A stretch of DNA of 32,081 nucleotides from a plasmid. This document shows, one piece after another, positions 41 to 32,081 of the stretch. The position numbers were made by a program, and so were the translations under genes. The number at the start of each line of letters is the position of its first letter. The stretch's first letter is position 1. The notes below the pieces were generated by a model. It worked only from the letters and a program-made list of their open reading frames with translations, was not told the DNA's origin and searched no databases. The stretch lies in the sequence record NZ_CP063125.1, one strand, 5' to 3'.

Positions 41-427
41 TTGAATCTCTACGAGCTTATAGATGAAGTTATGGCAGAAGCGCAAAATAAATCAAAGGTT
101 ATAAGTTTTCGTTTAACAGAAGAGCAATATAAACCTTTTGAAGAACTATTAAATAAAAGTGATAAAAAAGCCTCTGAATTTTTCAGGGAGTTATTTTTAT
201 CAAAACAAAAAGATGTAAATATTATTTTTAATGAATCTAAACCAGTAGATTATTATAACATTTTGCGCATAGTTAATAAATCAGGTAATAATTTAAATCA
301 GTTGGCACGTTCATTTAATTATGCGTTCAAATCAGGTCATATTTCAGAAGATTTATATAAAAAGGCAATAAATCTTTTGATAAATATACAGGGCTTACTG
401 AAGAATACATTGAAAGATGATAGTTAG
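41..427 (+). CDS. mobC: MobC-family relaxosome accessory protein (ribbon-helix-helix type). The reading frame is open back to base 2, so the gene may be 5'-truncated by the window or may start at the ATG at 71
   Basis: The IVNKSGNNLNQLARSFN motif matches the MobC family signature (G.NLNQ.AR). The small basic protein lies immediately upstream of and overlaps the relaxase gene. The ORF-track start is TTG. Confidence 0.7.
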   Translation: MNLYELIDEVMAEAQNKSKVISFRLTEEQYKPFEELLNKSDKKASEFFRELFLSKQKDVNIIFNESKPVDYYNILRIVNKSGNNLNQLARSFNYAFKSGHISEDLYKKAINLLINIQGLLKNTLKDDS

Positions 428-3400
428 ATACGGAGGGGGGAATAACGGCATTGCTGAATATCTTGAAAATGGTATGAAGCAAGGGCGAATGTTTTCCCGT
501 GATGAATTAGATCAGCGATTAGTTTTACAAGGCGATCTTGAATTTACTAATAACATTATTCAGTCAATTCAAGACAAAGGGCAAGAGCGTTATTTGCATA
601 TAACATTATCTTTCAAGGAAGATGAAGTAAGTTTTGAAAAAATGCAAAGCCTTGTTGATGATTATCGTAATTTATTATTATCTGCATATTCGGAAGATGA
701 ATATAATTTTTATGCAGAAGCGCATTTGCCAAAAATTAAACAGATTTCAGATAATAGAACGGGTGAATCTATTGAGCGAAAGCCTCATATTCATATTGTT
801 ATTCCCGAAGTCAATTTAGTTTCTCAAAAAAAACTTTCCCCCGTTGGATTGGTCGAGCTACACGAGCGTTATTTGGATTCAATTCAAGAGCATTTGAATT
901 ATAAATATAATCTTGAAAGTCCTAAAGATAACGTTAGAAAAGGTGATATGCACTATGCAAACGTACTTTCTAGGGTTAAAGGTGATTTTTTTGGACAAAA
1001 GCAGCAAGAGCTGAAATTACAGCTTATTGATGATATTGCTAAGGGCAAAATCAATACACTTGATGAATTTCAAGCAAGGCTTTCTGACGTGGGCGAGGTA
1101 AAAGTAAGAAATGCCGGCAAGTCTAATCAATATTTTGCCGTAAAAATTGGCGATGATAAAAAATTCACAAATTTAAATCACATCGCATTTTCGGAAAGTT
1201 TTATTGTGAATAAAACTTTACCTTATACAAAACCAACGCCGGAACAGGCTATAAAAGGCGTTCAGGAATGGCGAACTCGAGTTAGCCGCGAAGTGAAATT
1301 TATTCATTCTGCTGCGTCTAATTTTCGGAAAGAATATGCGCAAGCTACCGATTCACGGCGAGTAGAATTATTAAACGAGAGAGAAGAGCAATATGCAAGA
1401 AAATACCAACTTGAACAATCAAGACATTTTCAATCGAGAGGACGGGAGGGAAATTCTCAGCCCGACATTATTAGCAATCAAGGAGGAAAACCGCAAGCTG
1501 CTTCCAGATATGCCGTCGGCGTGCCAGGTCTGTCTATTGGCAATGTGGTTTACGGAGAAAACCAAAACCGCGACAGAACTCAAGGTATTTTGCCCGAAAA
1601 TGAATTCAATCATTTACGAAACGGGCAAACCAGTAACAATTCCGCTATGCGACGGAATGATTCAAGCGGAGCAAGCAATGCTGGAACAGCAAGACGAGGG
1701 GATCGGAGGGCTATTCAAAGCCTTGAATCAGGCAGCCGGGGAAAGATTAAAGGAAATTCGACGTACCGAGCAAATTCAAACGCCGGAGGAAGCAAGTTTT
1801 ATTCCGGAAATATCAGAGGAGCCAACATTCGAGGGCGATACAGTGATATTTCCCGACGAGGATATAGTGATTCCATAAATGCGCCAAAATCGCATTTTAT
1901 GCTTGTTTCACGCGGTTTACCGACACAAACCTATGACCGTACTATATTTAATCGTGATGAATACTATATTCCGATAAAAACACCATTTGAAGCATACGAG
2001 GAGGCATTACAGAAAAAGAGTAAACAAAGTTCCCGATTTAGTGAATCAAATTCTCTTTCTCAATTAGCCAAAAGTCAGAATGACGCGCGAGCTTATCAAT
2101 CTGATATTGAGAAATTTAGGGATATAAGGCAGAAAATCGATCCTAAAGCGTTTTTAAGCCATTTAGAGCGCGTTTATGCTATAAACCCTAATAAGTATAG
2201 CGTTAGCTATGCGAAAGACGGTAGCCCGCGTTTTCGCGTGAATAAACGCAATCTTAACGCATCAGATTTTCTAACCAAACATTTAAATCTTAGTTGGAAA
2301 GAGGCTAGTTCAGTTTTATTGTTGGTTTATTCAAAACAAACCAATAAACACATCAATCAAGAAAAACTCACTAGCCAACAAATAGCGCGGAACATCAAAG
2401 CCTTTGTATCTGAATCACGTCGATTTGAAAAAGATTTCAAATTAGCGCTTCAAAATATGAATGTTGAGAACCGCAATTTATATCGACTAGAAAAAAAACG
2501 GATTTACAGCCGTTTTACTAGCCAAAAAGTCCGTAACCAAGAACTTGCGATAGCCTCTTTCAGAGCTATGCAACGCCAGGAACAGATCACCGTTTTTGAG
2601 AGTGAAATAAATCAGTATTTAGATGACGCTAAAATTCACTTTCAGCAAAGCGGATATTCAGACACAGCATTAAGGAGTTTAGAAATGGGTCTTTTAAGCC
2701 AAAACGTAATGGATAGAGCCTCAAATTTATTTGGCTCAAATAGCGAAATGGGGCAAATTTCATCAGCCAAACAAGAGATTAGCTTTACTGAAAACTTTGC
2801 GCAAGTTCGCCGCGTTCAAAAAGAATTATTAAAAGAACAGCAAGCCCAACAAGCAGCAAGAGCTGCTGCTCAAGCCAAAACGGCACTTACTCAACAACAA
2901 GCAGAGCAAATACAGCAACAAACTCAATTTTTTAATCGTTCAATGGACGACGTGATGAAATTGAACAATATCGGTATTTCTAAACGTGAAAACGGCGATA
3001 TTGCCTATAAACGCTTAGAAGATGGTAAAACTCTGTTTACCGATACCGGTTCACAAATGTTAATTTCAAAAGATATGCAAAATCTGGAAAATGTAAAAGT
3101 TTTCCTCGAATTAGCCGTTGATCGATATGGCAATGATTTAAACGTTAAAGGGAGTAAAGAGTTTAAATCAATGGTAATTGAAGTTGCTGCGGCGAATAAT
3201 CTTCCTGTTACCTTCAAGAATGCCGAAATGCAAGATCAGTTAATGAAACGCCGTAATGAATTGAAACTTGAACAGAATGCCGGTGCGGTAACAAATGACG
3301 CTCAACAGGCTTTACCTGAAAAAGAAAATCTTCAAGCTAAAGCAGAGGAAGTTACCTCAATTAAACAGCCAATAGAAAATGACCTGACAAATTCTCAACC

Positions 3401-4277
3401 TGAAATAAAACCTCAAGAGGTTGCTCAAGAAAAAACTCAACTACAATCAGAACAAATCACAACTAATGATGTTCAAGAGCCGATATTGGAACAACAAACA
3501 AATGATATTGATGATCCTTTCGGAAATAATAAATTATCGGTTACAGAAAAAGTCCAGTATGACTTGAGAAATCTTAATGAATCGTATGAGAATTATCTAA
3601 ATAACGAAGTGGAAGACGGGCAATGGGATTATACAGACTATTCAACTATAAATAGTAGTGAAATTTATAATTCAGCCCTAGATGAAATTGATAGACAGAT
3701 CAAAGAAAACCCTGAATATGCTGCCGAGTTATATAAACAGACAAAAGGGGATATTAAATTTGAGCATTCGCTTTCTAAAGAATCAAGAAGTGTTCTGCTT
3801 GTTGAGAAAGCCTTTACTTATGTAAAAGATATGGCGAATAATCCAAATGAGGAAAATCGAATAAAAATTGTAGAGCAGCTACGCAACCCTGACTTTAAAC
3901 AAGCCTATGAAAAGGCTGAACAGCGTTATTTAGCTGAACGAGCTGCCTCAAATGGAAAACAATCCAATACTACCGAGCAAACAAAAACAGCAAAAATTTA
4001 CGATGTGAAATTTGAGTTCAAACGTAATGAAAAAACCGGTCAAGAATCATTTAAAATTAAAGTCAATGGCGTAACACCGGCGACAGCAATTAAAAATGAT
4101 CCTCAAGCATTAGAAGTACTGAAAAACCACCCTGATTTGAAAGGTATTTCTGATACTCAAATTAAAAAAGGCTTTATCAACGATAACGGGGGATTGCGTC
4201 CTATGGATATGAAATTAGACGCCACAGGTAAAGAAATTCAAGCCGAGAAAGCCAAAGAACAAGGATTTGAGCGGTAA
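417..4277 (+). CDS. Conjugative relaxase of the MOBP (RP4 TraI-like) family with a very long Q/A/E-rich C-terminal extension (1286 aa)
   Basis: The N-terminus MIVRYGG...AEYLENG resembles RP4 TraI MIAKHV...VKYITDE with a catalytic Tyr candidate. ERYLHITLSF resembles the TraI YHLLVSF motif. KPHIHIVIPEVN is an HxHxxxN-like His motif. The start is coupled to the mobC stop, and the ORF runs uninterrupted for 3.86 kb. Confidence 0.8.
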   Translation: MIVRYGGGNNGIAEYLENGMKQGRMFSRDELDQRLVLQGDLEFTNNIIQSIQDKGQERYLHITLSFKEDEVSFEKMQSLVDDYRNLLLSAYSEDEYNFYAEAHLPKIKQISDNRTGESIERKPHIHIVIPEVNLVSQKKLSPVGLVELHERYLDSIQEHLNYKYNLESPKDNVRKGDMHYANVLSRVKGDFFGQKQQELKLQLIDDIAKGKINTLDEFQARLSDVGEVKVRNAGKSNQYFAVKIGDDKKFTNLNHIAFSESFIVNKTLPYTKPTPEQAIKGVQEWRTRVSREVKFIHSAASNFRKEYAQATDSRRVELLNEREEQYARKYQLEQSRHFQSRGREGNSQPDIISNQGGKPQAASRYAVGVPGLSIGNVVYGENQNRDRTQGILPENEFNHLRNGQTSNNSAMRRNDSSGASNAGTARRGDRRAIQSLESGSRGKIKGNSTYRANSNAGGSKFYSGNIRGANIRGRYSDISRRGYSDSINAPKSHFMLVSRGLPTQTYDRTIFNRDEYYIPIKTPFEAYEEALQKKSKQSSRFSESNSLSQLAKSQNDARAYQSDIEKFRDIRQKIDPKAFLSHLERVYAINPNKYSVSYAKDGSPRFRVNKRNLNASDFLTKHLNLSWKEASSVLLLVYSKQTNKHINQEKLTSQQIARNIKAFVSESRRFEKDFKLALQNMNVENRNLYRLEKKRIYSRFTSQKVRNQELAIASFRAMQRQEQITVFESEINQYLDDAKIHFQQSGYSDTALRSLEMGLLSQNVMDRASNLFGSNSEMGQISSAKQEISFTENFAQVRRVQKELLKEQQAQQAARAAAQAKTALTQQQAEQIQQQTQFFNRSMDDVMKLNNIGISKRENGDIAYKRLEDGKTLFTDTGSQMLISKDMQNLENVKVFLELAVDRYGNDLNVKGSKEFKSMVIEVAAANNLPVTFKNAEMQDQLMKRRNELKLEQNAGAVTNDAQQALPEKENLQAKAEEVTSIKQPIENDLTNSQPEIKPQEVAQEKTQLQSEQITTNDVQEPILEQQTNDIDDPFGNNKLSVTEKVQYDLRNLNESYENYLNNEVEDGQWDYTDYSTINSSEIYNSALDEIDRQIKENPEYAAELYKQTKGDIKFEHSLSKESRSVLLVEKAFTYVKDMANNPNEENRIKIVEQLRNPDFKQAYEKAEQRYLAERAASNGKQSNTTEQTKTAKIYDVKFEFKRNEKTGQESFKIKVNGVTPATAIKNDPQALEVLKNHPDLKGISDTQIKKGFINDNGGLRPMDMKLDATGKEIQAEKAKEQGFER

Positions 4278-7080: not shown

Positions 7081-8004
7081 TTATTTAATCCAATATACGC
7101 CGCTTTTCTCTTCACGGGCTTTTTCTTCGGCTGAAACAGTACGGTTATAGATTTCATTAAAACGTTTTAATTCTGTTTCGACCGCTTTTTTATCAGTATT
7201 CTCGGCGGATTTTGAGTTCATTTGATAAATCACATTGCCGCTTGTATCTGTTAGCGTCATTTTAGCTTTAGAATCAAACATTGTATTTGCTAAACACAAT
7301 GAGAACCCGCCTGATTGTCCGGTGGTGAAATTAGCGGTTTCTTTGATTGAGCTGCCTAGGCGCGAAAAAGTAATTTTATAATTACTATTCGGGGGTAAAT
7401 ACTCGGAACCCGCCCAATGTACACATCTTTTCGAACTATCTAGCGTTAATCCACCTTTTCTGCCGTTTTCAAAGACGGTTGAACCATCTCCCCAACCCTC
7501 GTGATTTATGGCTGATTTTGGAGATTCTTGAGGCGTTTCAGTGGTATTTATATTCATTGCTTCCATTGCCTCTTTATGTTTCTCGGTCGCTTCATCAATC
7601 GCTTTTTGATATTCCTTATCGTAACCTTGAGCAATAAGATTGTTTGTATCTTTGTCTAAGCATTTATCAAGTCGTCTTAATAAACCTCGATCACACGCAC
7701 TACGGCTATTTGCGATTTTGTCGATATTGACATCATTTGACGCGGGGCAAAGTTTCAAAAAGTTTTTTCTTTTGGTAACAGTCTGGTGCCATTTTTTGGC
7801 GCGTAAACTGTAATACTTTTTAAGCGACGCGGCGCATTCACTCGGGCGCGAGCTGCTAGATAAACACAATATCGCTTCACAAGCTAAACGAGTATCGCCT
7901 GTTAAAATATCATCAGCACCTCGAGGCTGAATGTCTTGAGCAAAAGCATTTGAGGCGGCGAAAAGTGCGGCAACAATACTTAATTTTTTCATTGTCTTTT
8001 TCAT
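7081..8004 (-). CDS. Secreted/periplasmic protein of unknown function (307 aa), co-transcribed with the T4SS
   Basis: The start has a GAGGA SD. The N-terminal signal peptide is MKKTMKKLSIVAALFAASNAFA. The protein is Cys-rich with no recognisable family. It sits between virD4 and ssb in the operon. Confidence 0.55.
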   Translation of the reverse strand: MKKTMKKLSIVAALFAASNAFAQDIQPRGADDILTGDTRLACEAILCLSSSSRPSECAASLKKYYSLRAKKWHQTVTKRKNFLKLCPASNDVNIDKIANSRSACDRGLLRRLDKCLDKDTNNLIAQGYDKEYQKAIDEATEKHKEAMEAMNINTTETPQESPKSAINHEGWGDGSTVFENGRKGGLTLDSSKRCVHWAGSEYLPPNSNYKITFSRLGSSIKETANFTTGQSGGFSLCLANTMFDSKAKMTLTDTSGNVIYQMNSKSAENTDKKAVETELKRFNEIYNRTVSAEEKAREEKSGVYWIK

Positions 8005-20947: not shown

Positions 20948-20991
20948 ATTAAATCAATGTTTGAACCTGTTCAATCTTAGGAGGATTTAAA

Positions 20992-21651
20992 ATGGGAAAA
21001 ATCGTTTTGTTTGATAGCGTAAAAGGTGGGGTTGGCAAATCAACGTTGCTGGTGCAATTTGTTTGTGCAATGGCGAAAACAAAAAAAATAGCAGCAATGG
21101 ACTGTGATCCGCAAGGAAGTCTTGAAAACTGGGCTATTCGACGTTTCAATAATTTTCAATCGCTTGATTTTGATATGCTTGAGGCTGACTTATCATTTTT
21201 GACTGAAAATAAAAAAGAATACGATTATATTTTTGTTGATTCTGCCGGGGCTGATAATGAAATTGGGCGTGAGCTGTTTTCAATGGTTGATATTATAATT
21301 TCGCCTTTACAACCCACAACAGCGGCATTTGATACTATCCCAATACATAGCAAAATCGTGAATGAATCGATTGAATTTAATCCTAATCTTGAATTGTTTT
21401 ATTTGTTGAATGAATGCTCTACGCATTCAAAAGACCAGGAGGCAAACGATACTTACTCAAATCTTTGCCAATTCATTGAATCAACCTATGGAAAACGCTT
21501 TCACGTCGTACCTAATTTTGTTTTTGATAGAAAGGTGCTTAAAACCAGTTATGGCGTAGGATTGAGCTGCTTTGATGGTCGTAAAAATAAATCAAAAGAT
21601 GAAATTACAAGTATAATTTCATTTATTTTTGGAGGTAAAATTGATGGCTAA
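20992..21651 (+). CDS. parA: ParA/Soj-family partition ATPase
   Basis: The deviant Walker A motif KGGVGKST is present and the protein is 219 aa. It is translationally coupled to the downstream gene. Confidence 0.85.
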   Translation: MGKIVLFDSVKGGVGKSTLLVQFVCAMAKTKKIAAMDCDPQGSLENWAIRRFNNFQSLDFDMLEADLSFLTENKKEYDYIFVDSAGADNEIGRELFSMVDIIISPLQPTTAAFDTIPIHSKIVNESIEFNPNLELFYLLNECSTHSKDQEANDTYSNLCQFIESTYGKRFHVVPNFVFDRKVLKTSYGVGLSCFDGRKNKSKDEITSIISFIFGGKIDG

Positions 21652-22189: not shown

Positions 22190-22213
22190 AGAACAAAGAA
22201 ATTGTAAACTGAA

Positions 22214-22256
22214 AAAGAGGGAGTAAATAGCGCAGTCTTTTACTCCCTCTTTTTTA
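22214..22256 (+). terminator. Rho-independent terminator of the par operon (copy A). An identical copy lies at 27412-27454
   Basis: The hairpin AAAGAGGGAGTAAA-loop-TTTACTCCCTCTTT is followed by a 6-T run. Confidence 0.7.
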
Positions 22257-22884
22257 GTTGAGCAACCGGAGCCGTCAGGCGTAGGGCGGTAGCCTTTGGG
22301 GCTTCCCCTCCCGTTGGTCGGGTCGGGCTATATTTTTCGGCTGCACGTCCGGCAAAAGCCGGTCTTTTCGCTCGAAAAACTCAACCAAATAAAACAGGCT
22401 GCTTTTTCGCGGCCCGTTTTATCTGTTTTCGCCCGTCCGGGTTACTATCCCTAAGCTGTTCCGTCCTCCGGACGGCTTAAAAGGGCTTCGCCCCTTAAGA
22501 ATCCCCATAAAGGGGTTAAAAACCCCTTTAAACCCCCCTTATTCTTTTCTTGCACTTTTACTCTCCTCTTCCCTCGATAACTTCTCTACGGGCTTTATTT
22601 TTCGTTAGGGTTCTGCAGGGCGTGAATGCTTGTGGGCTGTTTGATTTTGAGCGTGTTAAACGGTCATTTCTCCGCTCTGACATCGAGCAGGGTTCCGGGC
22701 AAATGCGGCGGCTTTGCCCTTCCATCAAGGGGGGGATTCTTGCAAATCCCCCCTTAATAATCCCCTTTCTTGTCGGAAAATTTAGCAATATATGCAAGTA
22801 AAAAAAGACTTTATTTAATAAATAAAAGTGCGAATATATTTAGATTTATTTTATAAATAATGCAAAAAATAATGTAAAAAATAC

Positions 22885-22913
22885 TTGCAATTAAAAGCAA
22901 AAAAGACTATAAT
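22885..22913 (+). promoter_or_regulatory. Sigma70 promoter for the J-domain gene. An identical copy at 28083-28111 drives the DUF2958-like gene
   Basis: The sequence is TTGCAA-17 nt-TATAAT with a T/A-rich upstream region. Confidence 0.6.
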
Positions 22914-22996
22914 TTATCTCAAGTTGAACGGGAAAACGTTCAGCGAGTTAGCCAAATGTGGCTAGTCTTTTCTTTATACCTAAATGAGGTAATCAA

Positions 22997-23518
22997 ATGA
23001 ATATCAATGAAGCTCTTAATATCTTAAATCTTTCCGGCTCTGTAACAAAAGCAGATATTGCAAAGGCTTATAAACGTCTTGCTGTAAAATATCACCCTGA
23101 CAAAAATCCGACTGGTGCGGAAATGATGAAAATCATCAATGCAGCGTATGAAATGCTTAAAAATCTTGATTTAGAGGAAATTAAACATACCGATCAAGAA
23201 AACGCATATAACTACGCGGACGTTTTGGAAGAAGTGATCCGTGAAGTTTTGAAAATGCACGGCGTGATTATTGAAATCTGCGGTAACTGGATTTGGCTTG
23301 CGGGGGAAACCCGTCAATATAAAGAGCAAATTAAGGCTTTAGGCTGCTTGTGGGCTTCTAAAAAGAAACAATGGTACTTTCGACCGACTGAACATAAAAG
23401 TTCACGTCATAAAGCGTGGGATATGGACAAAATCCGCTCTCACTATGGTTCAGAAGTCTTAAAAGCAAATTCTTCTCTTAATGACTTCAAAAAAACAAGT
23501 TTACCGGCAGCAGCTTAA
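22997..23518 (+). CDS. J-domain (DnaJ-like) protein, 173 aa
   Basis: The N-terminal J domain has the YKRLAVKYHPDKN motif containing HPD. The gene has its own promoter, leader and terminator. Confidence 0.7.
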   Translation: MNINEALNILNLSGSVTKADIAKAYKRLAVKYHPDKNPTGAEMMKIINAAYEMLKNLDLEEIKHTDQENAYNYADVLEEVIREVLKMHGVIIEICGNWIWLAGETRQYKEQIKALGCLWASKKKQWYFRPTEHKSSRHKAWDMDKIRSHYGSEVLKANSSLNDFKKTSLPAAA

Positions 23519-23528
23519 TTTTATTGAT

Positions 23529-23550
23529 AGCCCGTGAAAACGGGCTTATT
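23529..23550 (+). terminator. Terminator after the J-domain gene
   Basis: The hairpin is AGCCCGT-gaaa-ACGGGCT, followed by a T-rich stretch. Confidence 0.5.
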
Positions 23551-23656
23551 GGGGCAAAATATGTGTTTAAATTTTTTAGATTTAGAAAGTAATAAAAGAG
23601 CCAAGAAAAGCTTAAATTAAAGCATTAAATAATCTTTAAAATACTTGTTTTTTTAC

Positions 23657-23685
23657 TTGCATTTTTAGTTTTATTTTACTATAAT
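23657..23685 (+). promoter_or_regulatory. Sigma70 promoter with the conserved leader for the 136-aa gene
   Basis: The sequence is TTGCAT-17-TATAAT, preceded by TTTTTTAC. Confidence 0.6.
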
Positions 23686-23779
23686 GTTTCAAGTTAAACG
23701 GGAATTGTTACTAAAGCTTACCATTTAACAATATGCCAAAAGTGGCAAAACTAATCTCAAATCTTAAGAGGATTTTCTT

Positions 23780-24190
23780 ATGAGCCTAAAAATTGAAAGA
23801 GCTTTTAAAAAAGCGGGTATCCCTGAAATGCCAATAGTTCGCCGTCATATTCTAGTTAATCTTGCAAAAGTGGGGGCTGATTTAGATAAATTAACAAGTA
23901 CAGAAATTGGCTTTATTATTAAAGCATTGCATATTGGTTATCACAACGCAAAAGGCAGTCAAGAAGCTGATTATATGGCTGATATGGGCTGCGTTTGGAT
24001 TGGTGGCGAAGTGCAAAAATTGTTACCAATAGAAGCCCTAAAAAGTATTCGAATCATTAAGGAAAGCAAGCCGATTGAAAAGAAATCTATTCCCTCTGGG
24101 TGGAAATATGGCGTGCTTCCTTATGGGTGGGATCGCGTTGAGTATGAGCGAAAAACGCGCTACAAGTTAGATTTTACAGAAAGCTGTTAA
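23780..24190 (+). CDS. Hypothetical protein (136 aa)
   Basis: The start has an AAGAGGA SD and the gene has its own promoter and leader. I recognise no family. Confidence 0.55.
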   Translation: MSLKIERAFKKAGIPEMPIVRRHILVNLAKVGADLDKLTSTEIGFIIKALHIGYHNAKGSQEADYMADMGCVWIGGEVQKLLPIEALKSIRIIKESKPIEKKSIPSGWKYGVLPYGWDRVEYERKTRYKLDFTESC

Positions 24191-24195
24191 AGTGT

Positions 24196-24224
24196 TTGAC
24201 AGATAATTATTTGAGGCGTACTAT
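24196..24224 (+). promoter_or_regulatory. Near-consensus sigma70 promoter driving a short noncoding transcript
   Basis: The sequence is TTGACA-17 nt-TACTAT, immediately after the stop of the 136-aa gene. Confidence 0.55.
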
Positions 24225-24230
24225 CTTAAC

Positions 24231-24349
24231 AAGCAATCAGTATTTTTGCTTTTGCACCCTGTAAAGGGTGAGTGTTGAAACAAAAAAACATAGAACTATC
24301 TTTTTGATAGCAAGAAGACCGCCTTTTTAAGAATTAGGCGGTTTTTTTG
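24231..24349 (+). ncRNA. Candidate ~120-nt sRNA or transcription-attenuating leader
   Basis: A consensus promoter is followed about 110 nt later by a hairpin ACCGCC-loop-GGCGGT plus a 7-T run. There is an internal hairpin CACCCT-gtaa-AGGGTG. No ORF with an SD lies inside. The 88-aa gene starts 37 nt after the T-run. Confidence 0.4.
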
Positions 24350-24385
24350 TGTTTAATTTTAAAATTTTAATATAGGGGTGTAAAA

Positions 24386-24652
24386 ATGCAAAAAAGAAGT
24401 AGAAGTATTTCTTACCGGTTACAGAAAACAAGCAACTCAGCAAAAAGAGTTGAAATTCTAACCGAATGGGCTAATCAATGGAAATTTGAGCATATTGATT
24501 TAATTGAACGCCTTAAAGGCGGAATTGATAATCAAGATATGAATGAAATTCGGATTGCTCTCGGGCAGTTAAGAGCAGTTACGGAAAAAAAACACGAGGC
24601 TTTACATAATATATTTAGATTTCTTTTAGATGATAGAAATGATAAAAAATAG
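24386..24652 (+). CDS. Hypothetical protein (88 aa)
   Basis: An AGGGG SD lies 8 nt before the ATG. It lies downstream of the promoter/terminator leader unit. Confidence 0.45.
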   Translation: MQKRSRSISYRLQKTSNSAKRVEILTEWANQWKFEHIDLIERLKGGIDNQDMNEIRIALGQLRAVTEKKHEALHNIFRFLLDDRNDKK

Positions 24653-24684
24653 CAAAATTATTTAAAAATAAAGTGTTTTTTTAC

Positions 24685-24713
24685 TTGTATTTTTAGTTTT
24701 ATTTTACTATAAT
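24685..24713 (+). promoter_or_regulatory. Sigma70 promoter with the conserved leader for the 194-aa gene
   Basis: The sequence is TTGTAT-17-TATAAT, preceded by TTTTTTAC. It is almost identical to the 23657 promoter. Confidence 0.6.
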
Positions 24714-24807
24714 GTTTCAAGTTAAACGGGAATTGTTGCTAAATCTTACCGTTTAACAATATGCCAAAAGTGGCAAAACTAATCTTAAATCTTAAGAGGA
24801 TTTCAAA

Positions 24808-25392
24808 ATGACTAATCAAGACTTGAAAAGCTGTTTCTCTACGGCAGTAACCGAATTTTTTAACACTAACCCGCTAAATGCTTTTTGGAAAAAAGCACAA
24901 AATGAGCTTGATTTCTGCGCTCAAATTCAAGGCGTGAAAGTGAGTATTGAATTTATTGTAGGATTTAGTCGAGTTAAAGCCGTTGTTTCTGTTGGTAAAT
25001 ATAGAGAACGGGGTTATTTCTACCATAAAATTTCTTTTTCTCTTGATAAAAAATCATTCGCTAATGATTTTAAAAGATTGGCTTTTGATAAAGTGGAAAG
25101 TGCAATCAACGAAATTGTGTCATATAGAAATGAACGCAAACTAATCGAAGAAAATTTTGAACATAAATTACAAGCCTTTCGCCGTTATTTTCCCTTTGAA
25201 GTTAATTGGTCGGGACGACTTTCAGCAAGTGGGATCTCAATGCCTAAAAAGCTAAGAGCTATTGAGCTTTCGGGGGTGAATGGCGAAAAAGATTATTATT
25301 TAAAGCAGCTAACTTTTTCATCTGATGATACTGATTTTTTAATGAAAATTTGTGCTTGCGTTTCTGAATTGATTAAACAAGAAAACGCATAA
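24808..25392 (+). CDS. Hypothetical protein (194 aa)
   Basis: The start has an AAGAGGA SD and the gene has its own promoter and leader. I recognise no family. Confidence 0.55.
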   Translation: MTNQDLKSCFSTAVTEFFNTNPLNAFWKKAQNELDFCAQIQGVKVSIEFIVGFSRVKAVVSVGKYRERGYFYHKISFSLDKKSFANDFKRLAFDKVESAINEIVSYRNERKLIEENFEHKLQAFRRYFPFEVNWSGRLSASGISMPKKLRAIELSGVNGEKDYYLKQLTFSSDDTDFLMKICACVSELIKQENA

Positions 25393-25469
25393 ATAAGTGA
25401 ATTTAGCGGTTAAATATCTTGATTTAGCCGCTAGTTAGGCAAATAATATCAATATATTAAGGCTTAAAT

Positions 25470-25760
25470 ATGAATCTACTATCAATGACTAAAAATCAAA
25501 TTTTTAATTTACTTTACAATCTTTCAGGTTACTCTTTCAACGAAAAAGCATTTGTTGAGCTGCTCAACAAACGCGGATTTGAAGCCTCAACGGGCAAAAT
25601 CAGAAATTGGCGACGTGCAAACACTGATAATCAAAATTACCGCCCTGTGCCGGATTTTGTCTTAGAAGTGATTTTTGAAGAGTTCTTTAAAGCAAAAAGA
25701 GCGAACGACGGCGTTTTAACGTTACCATTCATTGAACCAGTGAAAAAAACGAAAAAATAG
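25470..25760 (+). CDS. Hypothetical small basic protein (96 aa)
   Basis: An AAGG SD lies 8 nt before the ATG. A TAATAT -10-like box and an inverted repeat TAGCGG..CCGCTA lie upstream. Confidence 0.45.
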   Translation: MNLLSMTKNQIFNLLYNLSGYSFNEKAFVELLNKRGFEASTGKIRNWRRANTDNQNYRPVPDFVLEVIFEEFFKAKRANDGVLTLPFIEPVKKTKK

Positions 25761-25793
25761 TTACCTTGTAACTGATAAATATACGGAGAAATT

Positions 25794-26165
25794 ATGTTTT
25801 ATTATGTTGCTTATGATTTGGACGGTATTAAACTTTTTGAAACAGATGAAGATGGGATTATTCACGAATTTAAAGATGAAAATCATTTTTATGATCCTGA
25901 AGATAAGCTTATCTATTCCCAGTATAGCGGAAGAAAAGTTCCTACTTCAAATTATCAATGGGAACCTGAAGAAGCCAAAAAAACACTATTAGAATTAGCA
26001 TTAGAAAACGCTCAAAATAACGGCGATGGGCGAGTTTTATTTCAGCCTAATCAAAGTAAGAAAGATTTGATTGAGGATATAGAACAGTTCCTAGCAGATA
26101 ATGATGATATTGACGCGGATTTAGTTGAAGTGTTGAATAATATCATCAAGGAGTTATTGGAATAA
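25794..26165 (+). CDS. Strongly acidic small protein (123 aa, about 30 Asp+Glu versus about 11 Lys+Arg). Candidate DNA-mimic / anti-restriction-like protein
   Basis: The start has a GGAG SD. A palindromic operator-like AGTTACCTTGTAACT lies just upstream. The net charge is roughly -19 with acidic residues clustered at the C-terminus. It sits in the putative leading region. Confidence 0.5.
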   Translation: MFYYVAYDLDGIKLFETDEDGIIHEFKDENHFYDPEDKLIYSQYSGRKVPTSNYQWEPEEAKKTLLELALENAQNNGDGRVLFQPNQSKKDLIEDIEQFLADNDDIDADLVEVLNNIIKELLE

Positions 26166-26170
26166 AAAAA

Positions 26171-26197
26171 ATACCTAGCAAAAGCTAGGTATTTTTA
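26171..26197 (+). terminator. Strong rho-independent terminator
   Basis: The hairpin is ATACCTAGC-aaaa-GCTAGGTAT, followed by a T-run. Confidence 0.7.
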
Positions 26198-26394
26198 CAA
26201 AACAAATATGCGGTATTTGCTCGATAATAGCTATCAAACGGAGCTATTATCATAAAAAAGCGGCCAAAATACAAGTATTTCAGCCGCTTTTTTATGATAA
26301 CGCGGATCGCTTCGCGTTCCGCTCAATTTGTTCGGAGGAATAATGAATAGAGAATTACTCTCAATAAATAAATTTTAGCAAAAGCCGCTTAAAA

Positions 26395-26964
26395 TTAAGT
26401 GGCTTTTGCTTCTTTTCTCAACCTGTATGCTGTTGAATTAGATACATTGTATTTTTGAGCTAATTTAGCGATAGAATAATTTTTTTTGACATCACGCCGA
26501 AATGCCTTTTTCTGCTCTTCTGTGATCGCTTTAGGTCTGCCCCCTTTTCCTGCTTCACCTTTAGCCAATCTTCCCTCCAAAGTGCGTTCTCTTATCCAGT
26601 TTCTTTCCATTTCCGCTAATGAAGCCATAAAAACGCACTTCATTTTATCAAAAGGATCGTTACGCCTTTCTGTATCAATCATTCCGTCAAGGCTTTTTAG
26701 GCAAATTCCTCGACTTTCTAAATCTTCATATAAGTTTAAAAATTGGCTTGTACTTCGTCCTAGCCTATCTAATTTAGTTACTACGATTGTATCACCCTCA
26801 CGGGCGAAAGCTAATAATTCATCAAGCCTTGCTCGATTCTTTGATTTTTCCCCCGAATTTTTACCCACAAATATTTTAAAGCAACCCGCTTTTTCAAGTT
26901 GCTTTACTTGTTCTTCATAGCTTTGACCGACTGTACTTACTCGCGCGAACCCTATTAACGCCAT
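26395..26964 (-). CDS. Serine recombinase of the resolvase/invertase family (189 aa)
   Basis: The N-terminal catalytic motif is ALIGFARVSTVGQS, with GDTIVVTKLDRLGRS and a C-terminal HTH (YSIAKLAQKYNVSNSTAYRL). No transposase is adjacent. Confidence 0.85.
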   Translation of the reverse strand: MALIGFARVSTVGQSYEEQVKQLEKAGCFKIFVGKNSGEKSKNRARLDELLAFAREGDTIVVTKLDRLGRSTSQFLNLYEDLESRGICLKSLDGMIDTERRNDPFDKMKCVFMASLAEMERNWIRERTLEGRLAKGEAGKGGRPKAITEEQKKAFRRDVKKNYSIAKLAQKYNVSNSTAYRLRKEAKAT

Positions 26965-26987
26965 AAACTCAAATAATCCTGTTTTCC

Positions 26988-27281
26988 TTAAAAATCTCTA
27001 TTTCTTAGAAAATGACCTAGACTGTTAATATAGCCATCTCCTCTATCTTCCAATGGCTCAAATTCCTCAAAATATTTCCCATTTTGGAGCTTGTATAAAT
27101 GGGCAAAGTATTTATCCCTTACATCAAAATGACCTAATACCCAAAATTCTTTTTCTTTTATTTGAGGATAGTTTAATAGTAGCAAATTAGAATCTTCTCT
27201 AAATTCGTCCCAGTTTTTTATAAGTGATCTAATAAAATCAAAATCTTTACTTTTTATAAAGATAGCTTCTTCTTGATTCAT
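26988..27281 (-). CDS. Hypothetical protein (97 aa) co-transcribed upstream of the resolvase
   Basis: An AGGAG SD lies 7 nt before the ATG. Its stop is 23 nt before the resolvase start. Confidence 0.5.
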   Translation of the reverse strand: MNQEEAIFIKSKDFDFIRSLIKNWDEFREDSNLLLLNYPQIKEKEFWVLGHFDVRDKYFAHLYKLQNGKYFEEFEPLEDRGDGYINSLGHFLRNRDF

Positions 27282-27400
27282 AAATCTTCTCCTATGTTTT
27301 CAAAACTCAACAGATTTGAATAAGATGATAATGCTATATTTAAAACTTAGCAAGTTTTAGTTTTGAATATAGTCAAAATAATTTATTAGTGTTTTGACTA
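27282..27400. promoter_or_regulatory. Candidate res/recombination site and promoter region of the resolvase operon
   Basis: Several short inverted repeats are present. One is TAGTCAAAA-13 nt-TTTTGACTA. Another is TAAAACTT-agc-AAGTTTTA. They lie directly upstream of the operon, in the arrangement typical of serine resolvases. Confidence 0.3.
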
Positions 27401-28191
27401 TGTAAACTGAAAAAGAGGGAGTAAATAGCGCAGTCTTTTACTCCCTCTTTTTTAGTTGAGCAACCGGAGCCGTCAGGCGTAGGGCGGTAGCCTTTGGGGC
27501 TTCCCCTCCCGTTGGTCGGGTCGGGCTATATTTTTCGGCTGCACGTCCGGCAAAAGCCGGTCTTTTCGCTCGAAAAACTCAACCAAATAAAACAGGCTGC
27601 TTTTTCGCGGCCCGTTTTATCTGTTTTCGCCCGTCCGGGTTACTATCCCTAAGCTGTTCCGTCCTCCGGACGGCTTAAAAGGGCTTCGCCCCTTAAGAAT
27701 CCCCATAAAGGGGTTAAAAACCCCTTTAAACCCCCCTTATTCTTTTCTTGCACTTTTACTCTCCTCTTCCCTCGATAACTTCTCTACGGGCTTTATTTTT
27801 CGTTAGGGTTCTGCAGGGCGTGAATGCTTGTGGGCTGTTTGATTTTGAGCGTGTTAAACGGTCATTTCTCCGCTCTGACATCGAGCAGGGTTCCGGGCAA
27901 ATGCGGCGGCTTTGCCCTTCCATCAAGGGGGGGATTCTTGCAAATCCCCCCTTAATAATCCCCTTTCTTGTCGGAAAATTTAGCAATATATGCAAGTAAA
28001 AAAAGACTTTATTTAATAAATAAAAGTGCGAATATATTTAGATTTATTTTATAAATAATGCAAAAAATAATGTAAAAAATACTTGCAATTAAAAGCAAAA
28101 AAGACTATAATTTATCTCAAGTTGAACGGGAAAACGTTCAGCGAGTTAGCCAAATGTGGCTAGTCTTTTCTTTATACCTAAATGAGGTAAT
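27401..28191. repeat. 791-bp direct repeat, copy B, identical to 22203-22993
   Basis: Base-for-base identity at a 5198-bp offset. It ends 2 nt before the ATG of a different downstream gene. Confidence 0.9.
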
Positions 28192-28193
28192 TT

Positions 28194-28628
28194 ATGTTCA
28201 ATGTAACAGCAATTCAAAAAGCTGAAAATCAGTTAAAAACTTATTCTCAATTTTTCCCTAAAGCTCAAGCGGACGTATTGAAATCACTTCTTGCAAGTGA
28301 GGAATCGTCTTATGTTTGCAATCTGATTGATTCAATTATTCAAAAAATTGAGTCAATGCCTAGTACTTATGAAACAGAAGGGCAAGGCGAAAATGCCTTT
28401 GCTATTCTTCACTATTTTGGGGGAGCGTGTGATTTTTACATCACAGAAAAAGATATTGAGAACGGGCAAAATCAAGCCTTTGGATTGGGCTATATTTGCT
28501 TTCCTGAACTGGGCTATATCAGCCTTCCCGAATTGTTCAAATCGCCTTATATTGAGCTTGATTTGCATTTTACCCCTCAACCCGTTGGGAAGTTAAGAAA
28601 AGAGCTTTTAAAAAGAGTGGGGCTTTAA
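28194..28628 (+). CDS. DUF2958-like protein (144 aa), a family typical of plasmid/ICE leading regions
   Basis: The central motif AFGLGYICFPELGYISLPEL fits the conserved DUF2958 core (AFGL..G...ELGY.SL.EL). This rests on my recollection of the family signature. Confidence 0.55.
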   Translation: MFNVTAIQKAENQLKTYSQFFPKAQADVLKSLLASEESSYVCNLIDSIIQKIESMPSTYETEGQGENAFAILHYFGGACDFYITEKDIENGQNQAFGLGYICFPELGYISLPELFKSPYIELDLHFTPQPVGKLRKELLKRVGL

Positions 28629-28633
28629 TTTAA

Positions 28634-28655
28634 AGAGGGGATACCCCCTCTTTTA
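28634..28655 (+). terminator. Terminator after the DUF2958-like gene
   Basis: The hairpin is AGAGGGG-atac-CCCCTCT, followed by TTTT. Confidence 0.6.
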
Positions 28656-28687
28656 ATAAAAAAATTAAAAAATAATTTGTTTTTTAC

Positions 28688-28716
28688 TTGCAATTTTATT
28701 TTTAATTTGCTATTAT
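28688..28716 (+). promoter_or_regulatory. Sigma70 promoter with the conserved leader for the 83-aa gene
   Basis: The sequence is TTGCAA-17-TATTAT, preceded by TTTTTTAC. Confidence 0.55.
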
Positions 28717-28811
28717 AGTCTCAAGTTAAGCGGGAATGGTTGTTAAATCTTACCGTTTAACGATATGCCAAAAGTGGCAAGTTAAAATAAAATCTTATGA
28801 GGATTTAAAAA

Positions 28812-29063
28812 ATGACATTGACTACAAAACAATATGCGGAAGCCTTAATTTTTTCCTTTGAGAAAAAGGAGAAAATGAAATCTCAAGCCTTTAAAGGGTA
28901 TGAATGGGCGGAAATTTTCTCTTATATAAAGTCTTATCAAACTTTTGTAAAATTGAATAGCTATCAGAAACTATTATTTGTGGTATTAGCTTATTTAAAG
29001 CCGACCCCGCAAAGTAATTTTGTTATTGAGCAGTTAAGCAAAAGAGAAATCTTGTTTATTTAG
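28812..29063 (+). CDS. Hypothetical protein (83 aa)
   Basis: The start has a TGAGGA SD and the gene has its own promoter, leader and terminator. Confidence 0.45.
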   Translation: MTLTTKQYAEALIFSFEKKEKMKSQAFKGYEWAEIFSYIKSYQTFVKLNSYQKLLFVVLAYLKPTPQSNFVIEQLSKREILFI

Positions 29064-29099: not shown

Positions 29100-29202
29100 A
29101 TTTCATAAAAAAAATTTAAAAATAAATGCCTTTTTGCTTGCATTTATTTTTAAGGCGTTTTAGGGCAAGGTTTAGATTTTTCTTCTCACTAGGTTTTGCT
29201 TG

Positions 29203-29270
29203 GCATATTTTGCCCCCATTGAGGGGGCAAAATATGCGAAAGGGGGCGGCATTATATGCCGCCCCCTTTC
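29203..29270. promoter_or_regulatory. Two abutting perfect 15-bp hairpins between convergent genes
   Basis: The first is GCATATTTTGCCCCC-attga-GGGGGCAAAATATGC. The second follows immediately: GAAAGGGGGCGGCAT-tat-ATGCCGCCCCCTTTC. Confidence 0.5.
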
Positions 29271-29286
29271 TATTGATTTGAGTAGT

Positions 29287-29621: not shown

Positions 29622-30386
29622 TTATTTTGATTTTAGCTCATTGTCAATGTTACTGATAATAATTTTTTGGATTTTATCAGCCTCTTTTGGCGCAATCTTT
29701 TTCACTTCTTCAAAGCCTTTATACAAGCCGACTTGATATGCCGTTTCTTTGTCTTCGGGTTGTTTTGATTTTGTGAGAATAAAGCCTGATACGGCAATGT
29801 TTATGATTGTTAGCCCAGTCAAAACCCATAATAATGGGGTTTTTGATTTGTTTAATACTTCTGATTTTGCTTGTGATTTTTGAGGTTGTACACTTTCAAA
29901 GGATTTTTTAATTTCCTCAATTTTCTTGTTAGAAAACGAATCAAGGCTTGTTATAACTTGATTATTTAAGTCTAAAACTGATTTTGAAAACGCCGTGTGC
30001 ATTTCTGTTCCTGCGTCATCTATTACTTCTAAGGCTTTTCCTATTCCGGCACTAAGTTCATCTAACTTTTCTTGTAATTTTGCGTCGATTACATCGCCTA
30101 TTTGTTTTGGGATTGCGTGTAATGATTCTGTAATTAAAGTAGAGTAGTACTCCATCACGTTTTTTTGCGACAGAATCACGGCGAGAATTGGATCATCTGT
30201 TGAGATTTTTATGTGTAGTTTAGCGAAGCAATCAATAATGAAATTTCTGATAAGCTGATCAAATTCTTCATCATTAAGTGATAAACGTTCTTTGGTTTTT
30301 TCTCGACTATCTTCAATTTTTGTTTGTAAATCGATTAAATCGGTTGTTTCCTGGATAACAGGTTCAATTTGATTTTCAAATTCCAT
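29622..30386 (-). CDS. Coiled-coil protein with a C-terminal membrane anchor (254 aa), in the TraM-like position of the leader operon
   Basis: The true start is ATG 30386 (MEFENQIEPV) with an AAGGA SD. The ORF-track N-terminal 61 aa are a read-through of the GC-rich repeat and are rejected. The TM helix is LLWVLTGLTIINIAVSGFIL. Confidence 0.55.
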   Translation of the reverse strand: MEFENQIEPVIQETTDLIDLQTKIEDSREKTKERLSLNDEEFDQLIRNFIIDCFAKLHIKISTDDPILAVILSQKNVMEYYSTLITESLHAIPKQIGDVIDAKLQEKLDELSAGIGKALEVIDDAGTEMHTAFSKSVLDLNNQVITSLDSFSNKKIEEIKKSFESVQPQKSQAKSEVLNKSKTPLLWVLTGLTIINIAVSGFILTKSKQPEDKETAYQVGLYKGFEEVKKIAPKEADKIQKIIISNIDNELKSK

Positions 30387-30402: not shown

Positions 30403-30560
30403 TTTGGGGCTTTCCCTCCCGTTGGTCGGGTCGGGCTATATTTTTCGGCTGCACGTCCGGCAAAGCCGGTCTTTTCGCTCGAAAAACTCAATCGAATAAA
30501 ACGGGCCACTAAAGCAGCCCGTTTTATTCGCTTTCGCCCATTCGGGTTACTATCCCTAAG
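30403..30560. repeat. Third, diverged partial copy (~158 bp) of the 5' core of the GC-rich repeat
   Basis: It aligns to 22294-22456 with scattered substitutions. One internal hairpin, AAAACGGGC..GCCCGTTTT, keeps its stem but has a different loop. Confidence 0.8.
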
Positions 30561-30592
30561 CCGGTTCAAAAAAGGGCGATAATATCGCCCTT
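30561..30592 (-). terminator. Rho-independent terminator after the TraL-like gene
   Basis: On the minus strand the hairpin AAAGGGCGATA-at-TATCGCCCTTT is followed by a T-run. Confidence 0.7.
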
Positions 30593-31781: not shown

Positions 31782-31854
31782 TTATTACCTCATTACGTTA
31801 GATTTTTGTAGTTTATTTCATAAAAAAAGTATAGTCAAACAAAATTTGCTTTCT

Positions 31855-31945
31855 TTTTGCTTTTTTTATGGTTTCTTATTGCTTCCATTATGCTTCTTTA
31901 TTGGTTTATTGTGCTTTTAATGTGCTTTCTTTATGGTTTCCATAT
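31855..31945. repeat. About 8 tandem imperfect 10-11-bp direct repeats (TTATGGTTTC-like) with phased T-tracts
   Basis: The units are TATGGTTTC, TTATTGCTTC, CATTATGCTTC, TTTATTGGTTT, ATTGTGCTTTT, AATGTGCTTTC, TTTATGGTTTCC and ATATGCTTTTT. Helical-repeat spacing implies intrinsically bent DNA or an array of binding sites upstream of the TraK-like gene. Confidence 0.55.
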
Positions 31946-32081
31946 GCTTTTTGTTGATTACTGTAATAATTTTACAGGCACGACAGCGATGTTTACAAAG
32001 TGCAAGCACCATTGTAAAATCGACCGTGCGAAAGGGGGAACCCTTTCAAACCCCAACGCCCTTACAGGCTAGTTTATCCCT

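Follow-up and report, generated by a model that had tools for sequence, protein, structure and literature searches.

A promoter-fused two-hairpin 5′ leader repeated before candidate establishment genes of a Pasteurellaceae conjugative plasmid and its relatives

The window analysed here (sequence record NZ_CP063125.1, 32,081 nucleotides) is a conjugative plasmid of about 32 kb from the Pasteurellaceae, whose plus strand carries a 5′ leader with two hairpins repeated in front of several genes. A preliminary description of this DNA had placed five such leaders at 22914-22996, 28112-28193, 23686-23779, 24714-24807, and 28717-28811, and all five are found at these positions; they are designated L1, L1b, L2, L3, and L4, respectively. 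L1b was also correctly taken as a copy of L1. It lies within a direct repeat of about 790 bp (22203-22992 = 27401-28190) that is 100% identical between its two copies, so that only four leaders are independent. Two features were absent from that description. A sigma-70 promoter close to the consensus (TTGCAA, TTGCAT, or TTGTAT, a 17-bp spacer, and TATAAT or TATTAT) is joined to each leader, and most copies contain a weak hairpin (H3) that includes the Shine-Dalgarno sequence (SD). Each cassette thus consists of the promoter, a gap of 7-9 nt between the -10 element and the first hairpin (H1), a short linker, a G+C-rich second hairpin (H2), an A/U-rich and G-poor spacer, a strong SD, and an ATG. 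The parts are as follows.

22885..22913, plus strand: L1 promoter, TTGCAA, 17 bp, TATAAT, with an A-rich UP-like tract upstream
22923..22944, plus strand: L1 H1, GUUGAACG, a GGAAAA loop, and CGUUCAGC, beginning 9 nt past the -10 element
22947..22966, plus strand: L1 H2, core AGCCA AAUG UGGCU with up to 8 pairs, then CUUUUCUUUA; terminator-like score
22986..22999, plus strand: L1 SD (GAGG) and the ATG of the J-domain gene (22997-23518)
23657..23685, plus strand: L2 promoter, TTGCAT, 17 bp, TATAAT
23693..23729, plus strand: L2 H1, GUUAAACGG, a 19-nt loop, and CCAUUUAAC, with one C.A mismatch
23734..23747, plus strand: L2 H2, UGCCA AAAG UGGCA, its 5′ arm overlapped by the non-conserved AUG (23733) of an upstream open reading frame (uORF)
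23766..23782, plus strand: L2 SD (AAGAGGA) and the ATG of a gene for 136 amino acids (23780-24190)
24685..24810, plus strand: L3 cassette, with promoter 24685-24713, H1 24721-24757 (perfect, 9 bp), H2 24762-24775, SD 24794-24800, and the ATG (24808) of a gene for 194 amino acids
28083..28196, plus strand: L1b cassette, with promoter, H1 (28121-28142), and H2 (28145-28164) identical to those of L1, driving a gene for 144 amino acids (28194-28628)
28688..28814, plus strand: L4 cassette, with promoter 28688-28716, H1 28725-28761 (one G.U pair), H2 28766-28779, SD 28799-28803, and the ATG (28812) of a gene for 83 amino acids

The repetition is seen most directly in a 15-nt block, CAAGTTRARCGGGAA, which occurs in five copies, all on the plus strand and all upstream of an open reading frame (ORF). 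When up to three mismatches are allowed, about 1.6 matches are expected by chance and the observed six were reached by no shuffle; the sixth match (three mismatches, at 7880) is unrelated to the leaders.

H1 and H2 are part of the minimum free energy (MFE) structure in all copies. Against dinucleotide shuffles, the segment from H1 to H2 gives z-scores of -5.9 in L1, -1.7 in L2, -3.8 in L3, and -4.8 in L4, and 16 of the 17 two-hairpin segments tested, relatives included, are more stable than their shuffles (z from -1.7 to -5.9). Certain details of the hairpins require revision. The 9-bp H1 stem, formerly described as perfect in two copies, is perfect only in L3, since L4 has one G.U pair and L2 has a C.A mismatch and not a G-U pair. 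L1 and L1b form a different stem of 8 bp (GUUGAACG/CGUUCAGC, one U.G pair) closed by a 6-nt loop. Likewise, GGGAA was said to be exposed in the H1 loop; in L2-L4 its first two G residues are paired and the loop begins at GAA. The SD given for the family, AAGAGGA, holds for L2, whereas that of L1 is GAGGU and contains no GGA. In 10 of 16 leaders, folding energy is lower for the sense than for the antisense strand (mean difference -2.2 kcal/mol, Wilcoxon p = 0.057), with large gaps where the stems use G.U pairs, as in L022 (one of the relatives described below), L4, and L1. This bias favours RNA as the folded molecule and leaves a role in the transferred strand of DNA (T-strand) possible. A scan of the whole window against Rfam gave no match at the leaders at E ≤ 1.

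Relatives of the cassette were gathered by pattern scans, a covariance model, blastn with a cassette of Pasteurella multocida plasmid pFJ6671, and homologues of the J-domain protein encoded behind L1; blastn of PLSDB with the window leaders themselves gave no useful matches. The exact-pattern scan of metagenomes returned the close relatives L006-L011, while its matches L003, L005, and L013 were rejected as chance matches. Two metagenome contigs bearing these leaders measure 31,116 and 31,217 bp. The nearest relatives of the window plasmid are contigs of Rodentibacter trehalosifermentans, and pFJ6671 is a more distant plasmid syntenic with it. Nine distinct leaders of the window family went into the covariance model, whose weak matches in pFJ6671 end exactly at start codons. 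With the pFJ6671 cassette as query, 3-5 copies each were found in pF3028 and pF1947 of Haemophilus influenzae biogroup aegyptius and in a Glaesserella parasuis plasmid that has an F-type type IV secretion system (T4SS) and a MobF relaxase. The J-domain homologues led to eight more loci, on an Aggregatibacter kilianii-like plasmid, in Rodentibacter sp. JRC1, and on metagenomic and Serratia plasmids. At six of the eight, the J-domain gene stands behind a promoter, 7 nt, H1, a linker of 5-7 nt, H2, a spacer, and an SD, and the same layout usually also precedes one to three other leading-region genes. The other two are L021, with an H1 of 4 bp and no H2, and L026, which keeps H2 and the SD hairpin and lacks the promoter and H1 because its gene lies within an operon. 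Two to five cassette copies each are present in Rodentibacter, pFJ6671, pF3028, pF1947, G. parasuis, L020, L022, L023, L024, and L027, and the architecture as a whole spans plasmids of Rodentibacter, Pasteurella, Haemophilus, Glaesserella, Aggregatibacter-like bacteria, and Serratia.

A promoter spacer of 17 bp and an H1 that starts 7-9 nt past the -10 element are found in 24 of 24 parsed cassettes from five plasmid lineages, and inspection of six further lineages shows a 7-nt gap between the -10 element and H1. The bases within this gap differ by lineage yet end in CA or CAA in the parsed cassettes. Spacing between H1 and H2 is 4-7 nt in all lineages. If transcription starts where the promoter geometry predicts, the 5′ overhang before H1 would be 0-3 nt, and in MFE folds of the predicted RNAs the stem begins at nucleotides 1-4. 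One member of the family has been rearranged: in a metagenome relative (L007:598-677), a deletion has joined the L1 leader to internal sequence of the gene for 144 amino acids (GAGGTAATGCAAGTGAGGAATCG), leaving either a GTG start or a pseudogene.

The preliminary description had proposed a conserved two-hairpin leader linking a set of genes, to be checked with a covariance model and related plasmids. Carried out here, that check finds the hairpins kept in the relatives with compensatory substitutions, which supports the proposal. The H1 stems differ by lineage (GUUAAACGG, GUUGAACG, GUUAAG, CUUUA, AUUGAAAG, UGAAAG, UUAAAUC, and UCAAAUCA), as do the H2 stems (UGCCA, AGCC, CUCAC, AUUUUCAC, GCCC, AAACC, and CGCC). 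In the window-family alignment, 95.1% of the cells at paired positions are paired, compared with 35-47% when the partners are slid by 1-3 columns; five pairs are changed on both sides, and the covariation score lies above all 500 shuffles. In an alignment of 23 distinct leaders drawn from five lineages, pairing stands at 98.1% over the six outer pairs of H1 and three pairs of H2, as against 13-54% in the slid controls, though these counts are supportive and not proof, since the alignment was fitted with the model, and so leans toward structure, and the sequences are related. Individual pairs illustrate the exchange. The fourth outer pair of H1 is A-U in L2-L4 and G-C in L1, the sixth is A-U, G.U, or G-C, and an inner pair is C-G in L3, C.A in L2, and U-A in a variant from L008. 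The closing pair of H2 is U-A in L2-L4 and A-U in L1, while paralogous cassettes of a Serratia plasmid show A-U to G-C in H1 and G-C to A-U in H2. The loop of H1 ranges from 3 to 24 nt, and the centre-to-centre spacing of its arms from 10 to 34 bp (14 in L1 and 28 in L2-L4, with 28 in L4 against 18 in its L007 orthologue). Judged by this comparison of sequences, pairing has been kept while the stem sequence changed, and the hairpins appear to be selected structures.

The genes behind the leaders have few recognisable products. The gene behind L1 (22997-23518, 173 amino acids) encodes a J-domain protein with a conserved C-terminal domain (phrog_15863, E = 7e-40) and has 321 homologues, many of them plasmid-borne, in Pasteurellaceae, Serratia, Klebsiella, Salmonella, Shewanella, and Xenorhabdus. 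An ORF of 96 amino acids (25470-25760) that follows the gene behind L3 matches DUF1456 below threshold (19.9 bits against a 27-bit cutoff). Searches of Pfam, NCBIfam, PHROGs, and PDB sequences with the proteins of this gene set returned the J domain, the sub-threshold DUF1456 match, and otherwise unknowns, with no regulator among them; in particular, no helix-turn-helix or ribbon-helix-helix regulator was found in the same searches.

The remaining gene content of the window bears on where these genes lie with respect to transfer.

41-427: NikA-like gene
417-4277: relaxase with LPD7 domain
minus strand: VirB-type T4SS
elsewhere in the window: topoisomerase III, two ParA-like genes, and a resolvase

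By analogy with RP4 and R64, the origin of transfer (oriT) would lie between divergent traK/traL-like genes (31781 downward) and nikA, and the leading region would extend from about 31.8 kb downward, which would place the cassettes inside it. The plus-strand genes from 22997 to 29063 point toward this putative oriT, so that the transferred strand would be their template, which is the arrangement described for genes of the leading region (PMC11541004). In the loci examined, all of which were found through the J-domain gene, that gene likewise looks to sit in the leading region. Close to the putative oriT lie five copies of an 11-bp, T-rich tandem repeat resembling TGCTTTCTTTT (31847-31949), and adjoining them an ATCCC-TAC-GGGAT inverted repeat runs across the window junction (32060-32081 and 1-20). 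The two together are probably the oriT/nic region or iterons.

The strong promoter, a stem predicted to begin at the first to third transcribed nucleotide, H2, the G-poor spacer, and the strong SD are conserved together, and for this reason the unit is read as a portable high-expression cassette. The interpretation favoured here, to which we assign a probability of roughly 0.45, is that the hairpins are mRNA-protecting 5′-terminal stem-loops on the transcripts of establishment genes, which they would shield from 5′-end-dependent decay. The five sites would then be copies of one expression cassette driving genes of the putative leading ("establishment") region, and their common promoter and leader would unite these genes as one regulon. 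Transcripts are predicted to begin at an A 1-3 nt ahead of H1. The hairpins would act in the mRNA, where the paired 5′ end would deny RppH and the 5′ sensor of RNase E a single-stranded terminus, and H2 would be a second obstacle to decay. A single incoming plasmid copy would in this way yield stable, well-translated mRNA in a burst. The uORF would be incidental, as would its ATGA overlap and the GGA motifs. Precedent for this is found in Escherichia coli, in which 5′-terminal pairing stabilises mRNAs such as ompA and papA, and RppH and RNase E need single-stranded 5′ ends (PMC3997798). The ompA and papA 5′ untranslated regions have a hairpin a few nucleotides from the 5′ end, as is predicted for the cassette, they share with it a second hairpin and an accessible ribosome-binding site, and their effect depends on pairing (PMC3997798). 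As with 5′ stabilising stem-loops generally, pairing prevails over sequence here, given the lineage-specific stems and compensatory pairs. The element differs from the ompA and papA regions in being fused to its promoter and present in 2-5 copies per plasmid before unrelated genes, and in that its stabilising effect and transcription starts are predictions.

Several observations weigh against this interpretation. The +1 position on which it depends is predicted from promoter geometry, and an H2 held at a fixed 4-7 nt is not obviously needed by a pure stabiliser. The H1 of L2 is weak (z = -1.7), and L021 has a 4-bp H1 only, with no H2. In the Pasteurellaceae, the GUUAA/UUAAC outer stem of H1 and the GCC/GGC core are conserved beyond structural need. 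Moreover, copies are 83-100% identical within a plasmid and roughly 75% identical between plasmids, a homogeneity that may stem from co-evolution with a trans-acting factor and not from gene conversion. Finally, the sense-over-antisense folding bias is marginal, which leaves room for a role in single-stranded DNA (ssDNA).

The alternatives differ in the molecule in which the hairpins would act. An unlikely one is that H1, the linker, and H2 form the recognition module of a trans-acting RNA-binding regulator, of plasmid or host origin, that times or represses translation or decay. On this account, which we likewise consider unlikely in its stronger form, the two-hairpin module would be the address label of a dedicated post-transcriptional regulon, and the factor would determine how long the burst of expression lasts once the plasmid has entered by conjugation. 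Co-evolution of module and factor would make the copies homogeneous within a plasmid and divergent between plasmids, as is observed, but recombination between repeats also yields such concerted evolution. The fixed H1-H2 spacing of 4-7 nt in all lineages, the purine-rich H1 loops of many lineages, and the several small conserved proteins of unknown function within the same regulon are consistent with a dedicated factor; against it, none of the regulon proteins showed an RNA-binding domain, and the loops vary in sequence and length even within this plasmid (6 nt in L1, 19 nt in L2-L4). If the inverted repeats act in double-stranded DNA (dsDNA) instead, they could be operators of a plasmid repressor, with genes that fire on entry and are then shut off. 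Repeated strong promoters before establishment genes are regulated in this way in p576 and pKM101 (PMC8708921, PMC6289460). The establishment-gene regulatory sequence EGeRS2 of Bacillus p576 works through a dsDNA operator with dual TTATCCC motifs bound by the repressor Reg576 (PMC8708921), and the CUP sequence of IncN pKM101 through one with a 13-bp CUP core bound by ArdK (PMC6289460). Both resemble the cassette as promoter-bearing sequences that are repeated before leading-region operons and so define a regulon (PMC8708921, PMC6289460). They differ in that no fixed-geometry operator or repressor gene was found here, and what is conserved is a pair of hairpins in the transcript. The repeats do lie at the predicted positions +1 to +45 and form compact palindromes in some lineages (8-4-8 in Serratia, 7-3-7 in L023). 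However, the arm spacing of 10-34 bp varies among cassettes of one plasmid that would share a repressor, and a single dimeric repressor could not serve them all, which makes a palindromic operator unlikely. The compensatory changes also preserve pairing within a strand and not a fixed half-site, parA leaders lack these half-sites, and no repressor candidate was identified among the regulon proteins, so that operator action at the hairpins appears improbable, with a repressor acting elsewhere in the promoter still possible. As to parA, its leader in the window (20950-20992) contains a perfect palindrome, TTGAAC-CT-GTTCAA, like the H1 arms of L1, together with an SD context, AATCTTAGGAGGATTTAAAATG, like that of L2-L4, with H1 and H2 absent. 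A DNA half-site common to the cassettes and this leader (TTGAAC-N2-GTTCAA) was considered and rejected, as the parA leaders of related plasmids do not have it. It is similarly doubtful that the hairpins act in the incoming T-strand beside the promoters, by aiding priming, exclusion of single-stranded DNA-binding protein, or early promoter use. The T-strand would be the template of all cassette genes if oriT lies where RP4 and R64 suggest, the gene orientation is the same on F-type backbones, structure-only conservation suits ssDNA as well as RNA, and the L1 copies are preceded by a structured, GC-rich element. The Frpo/ssi elements of F and ColIb-P9 likewise combine a leading-region location, the T-strand as template, and hairpins (PMC11541004). 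In contrast, Frpo is a long imperfect hairpin whose stem holds the -35 and -10 elements, whereas the promoter here lies outside any inverted repeat. A Frpo-like ssDNA promoter was rejected, as ssDNA folds of the promoter region (z = 0.08 and -1.8) leave -35 and -10 without a complementary partner. In addition, the G.U pairs on which several stems depend become C.A on the T-strand, weakening H2 of L022 from -14.1 to -4.1 and L4 from -20.3 to -11.1 kcal/mol, and stems of 4-9 bp are too short for known ssi or M13-type origins. EGeRS1 of pLS20 is also repeated upstream of establishment operons and has inverted repeats able to fold in RNA or ssDNA. It is 420-750 bp long, GC-rich, and devoid of a sigma-A promoter (PMC8708921), whereas the cassettes measure about 140 bp, are AT-rich, and bear a promoter. 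A closer likeness to EGeRS1 is seen in the separate GC-rich element (22203-22790). Taken together, the cassette is akin to these repeated establishment-gene regulatory sequences and also to the hairpins of 5′ stabilisers, and it matched no Rfam family.

Other readings place the control within the leader transcript. The preliminary description had suggested a CsrA/RsmA-type target formed by a GGA in the H1 loop and another in the SD, together with a uORF that ends in an ATGA overlap and feeds the main start by termination-reinitiation. It gave the uORF peptides and coordinates correctly, as it did the ATGA overlaps at 23780, 24808, and 22997. The H1 loop has GGGAA on its 5′ side in the window family and AAGGA in pFJ6671 and pF3028, and some relatives share the overlap seen in L1, L2, and L3. 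Some copies thus resemble CsrA/RsmA leaders in having GGA near a hairpin loop and in the SD, but the motif is not conserved in the family. G. parasuis, L020, L022, L023, L025, L027, and one pF1947 copy have no GGA in the H1 loop, which leaves at least six lineages without it, and the L1 SD (GAGGU) lacks a GGA in the window itself; without a conserved loop GGA the CsrA reading fails. The uORF fares no better, being absent or truncated in most leaders. An AUG of any kind is missing in 7 of 23 distinct leaders (pF3028, pF1947), and an ATGA-overlapping uORF is present in only 6 of the 23. Orthologues of L3 and L4 end after six codons (MPKVAI*, MPKVAS*), that of G. parasuis reads MTH*, two pFJ6671 copies have also lost the ATGA geometry, and even in the duplicate L1b the uORF extends 32 nt into the main ORF, out of frame, with no overlap of this kind. 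Its AUG has no SD and lies inside the H2 stem (L2-L4) or loop (L1). The loss of the ATGA overlap in homologous plasmids was named in the preliminary description as an outcome that would speak against it, and this is what is seen, although the hairpins are retained; an ATGA at the main start means no more than that the second codon begins with A. The combined CsrA and termination-reinitiation scheme is accordingly given very little credence. A thermosensor, also suggested earlier, finds no support in the pairing of the SD. In 23 of 23 leaders the unpaired probability of the SD falls within the distribution of composition-matched shuffles (a fraction of 0.13-0.82 of the shuffles score no higher than the leader), the leaders contain neither a fourU nor a ROSE motif, and the SD hairpin H3, considered as a thermometer or translational lock, does no better than shuffles. 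An antisense RNA was proposed as well, but these plasmids hold no reverse-strand copy of the leader, the sole reverse-strand similarities being A/T-rich, promoter-like stretches. It is also highly improbable that H2 and a downstream U-rich tract form a leader terminator or attenuator limiting read-through into the gene. H2 of L1 does look like a terminator, with 8 pairs followed by CUUUUCUUUA, and UUAUAUUUUC or a similar tract follows H2 in copies 2 and 4 of pF3028, in G. parasuis, and in L023. However, the U-tract is absent in L2, L3, L4, L020, and L027, the H2 stems of most lineages have 3-5 bp, and no alternative antiterminator pairing was seen.

Genes of the leading region decide whether an incoming plasmid survives the defences of its host. 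To our knowledge, the means by which such genes are switched on quickly are known for few systems only, namely Frpo, CUP/ArdK, and the EGeRS. The cassette described here would mark an establishment regulon in a group of Pasteurellaceae and Serratia plasmids, whose carriers include the plasmids of H. influenzae biogroup aegyptius and a P. multocida plasmid bearing cfr and aadA. It is portable over unrelated transfer backbones (P/T-type and F-type), and its combined signature of sequence and structure may be used to find establishment genes and candidate anti-defence genes. It also offers a compact natural promoter-plus-leader part and a system in which the tuning of early plasmid expression at the mRNA level can be tested. 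Should the hairpins merely stabilise mRNA, this would be useful and unsurprising. Should they instead be the address label of a post-transcriptional regulon, they would constitute an RNA-level counterpart of ArdK/CUP and Reg576/EGeRS2, carried by plasmids of Pasteurellaceae and Serratia whose transfer backbones differ.

Additional elements lie around the cassettes. The GC-rich element (about 50% against about 32%) is non-coding and strongly structured, occurs at 22203-22790 and 27401-27990 with a copy of its core at 30403-30561, and has no Rfam match; its minus-strand ssDNA fold gives z = -4.1. Its core of about 160 nt has been retained by pFJ6671, pF3028, pF1947, and the plasmid of G. parasuis, and the element is typically found about 500 nt upstream of a leader cassette or beside the traL-like gene. 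It could be an ssi or priming site, a Frpo- or EGeRS1-like element, or a small RNA (sRNA). The 790-bp direct repeats flank a segment of 4.4 kb that holds L2, L3, their genes, and the resolvase (26395-26964), and the repeat pair is a likely substrate for recombinational deletion or duplication. A further element at 29100-29275 looks like a decayed sixth cassette. It has a promoter-like -35 element with the -10 deleted (intact in the Rodentibacter contig L002) and an H1-like UUAAG..CUUAG, followed by a 15-bp hairpin and a bidirectional terminator. This element was also considered as a trans-acting sRNA, as 17 nt of it match the H2 region of L2 and L3 in antisense, but only with 5 nt looped out. 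The match to L1 and L4 is poor, no -10 element is present in the window, and the element looks like a decayed cassette fused to terminators, all of which disfavour that role.

The exact-pattern scan of metagenomes also returned CRISPR arrays, in which one spacer is identical to the L4 promoter and H1 arm. A long type I-F-like array (repeat TTTCTAAGCTGCCTATTCGGCAGTGAAG; metagenome contigs L012 and L004) carries six consecutive spacers against this plasmid, five of them perfect and one with a single mismatch. Their protospacers lie in the window at 29995 (minus), 28706 (plus), 31293 (minus), 29366 (plus), 25561 (plus), and 4404 (minus). One spacer spans the -10 element and the 5′ arm of H1 of L4, and five of the six protospacers fall within 25.5-31.3 kb, a clustering that looks like primed acquisition against the region that enters first.

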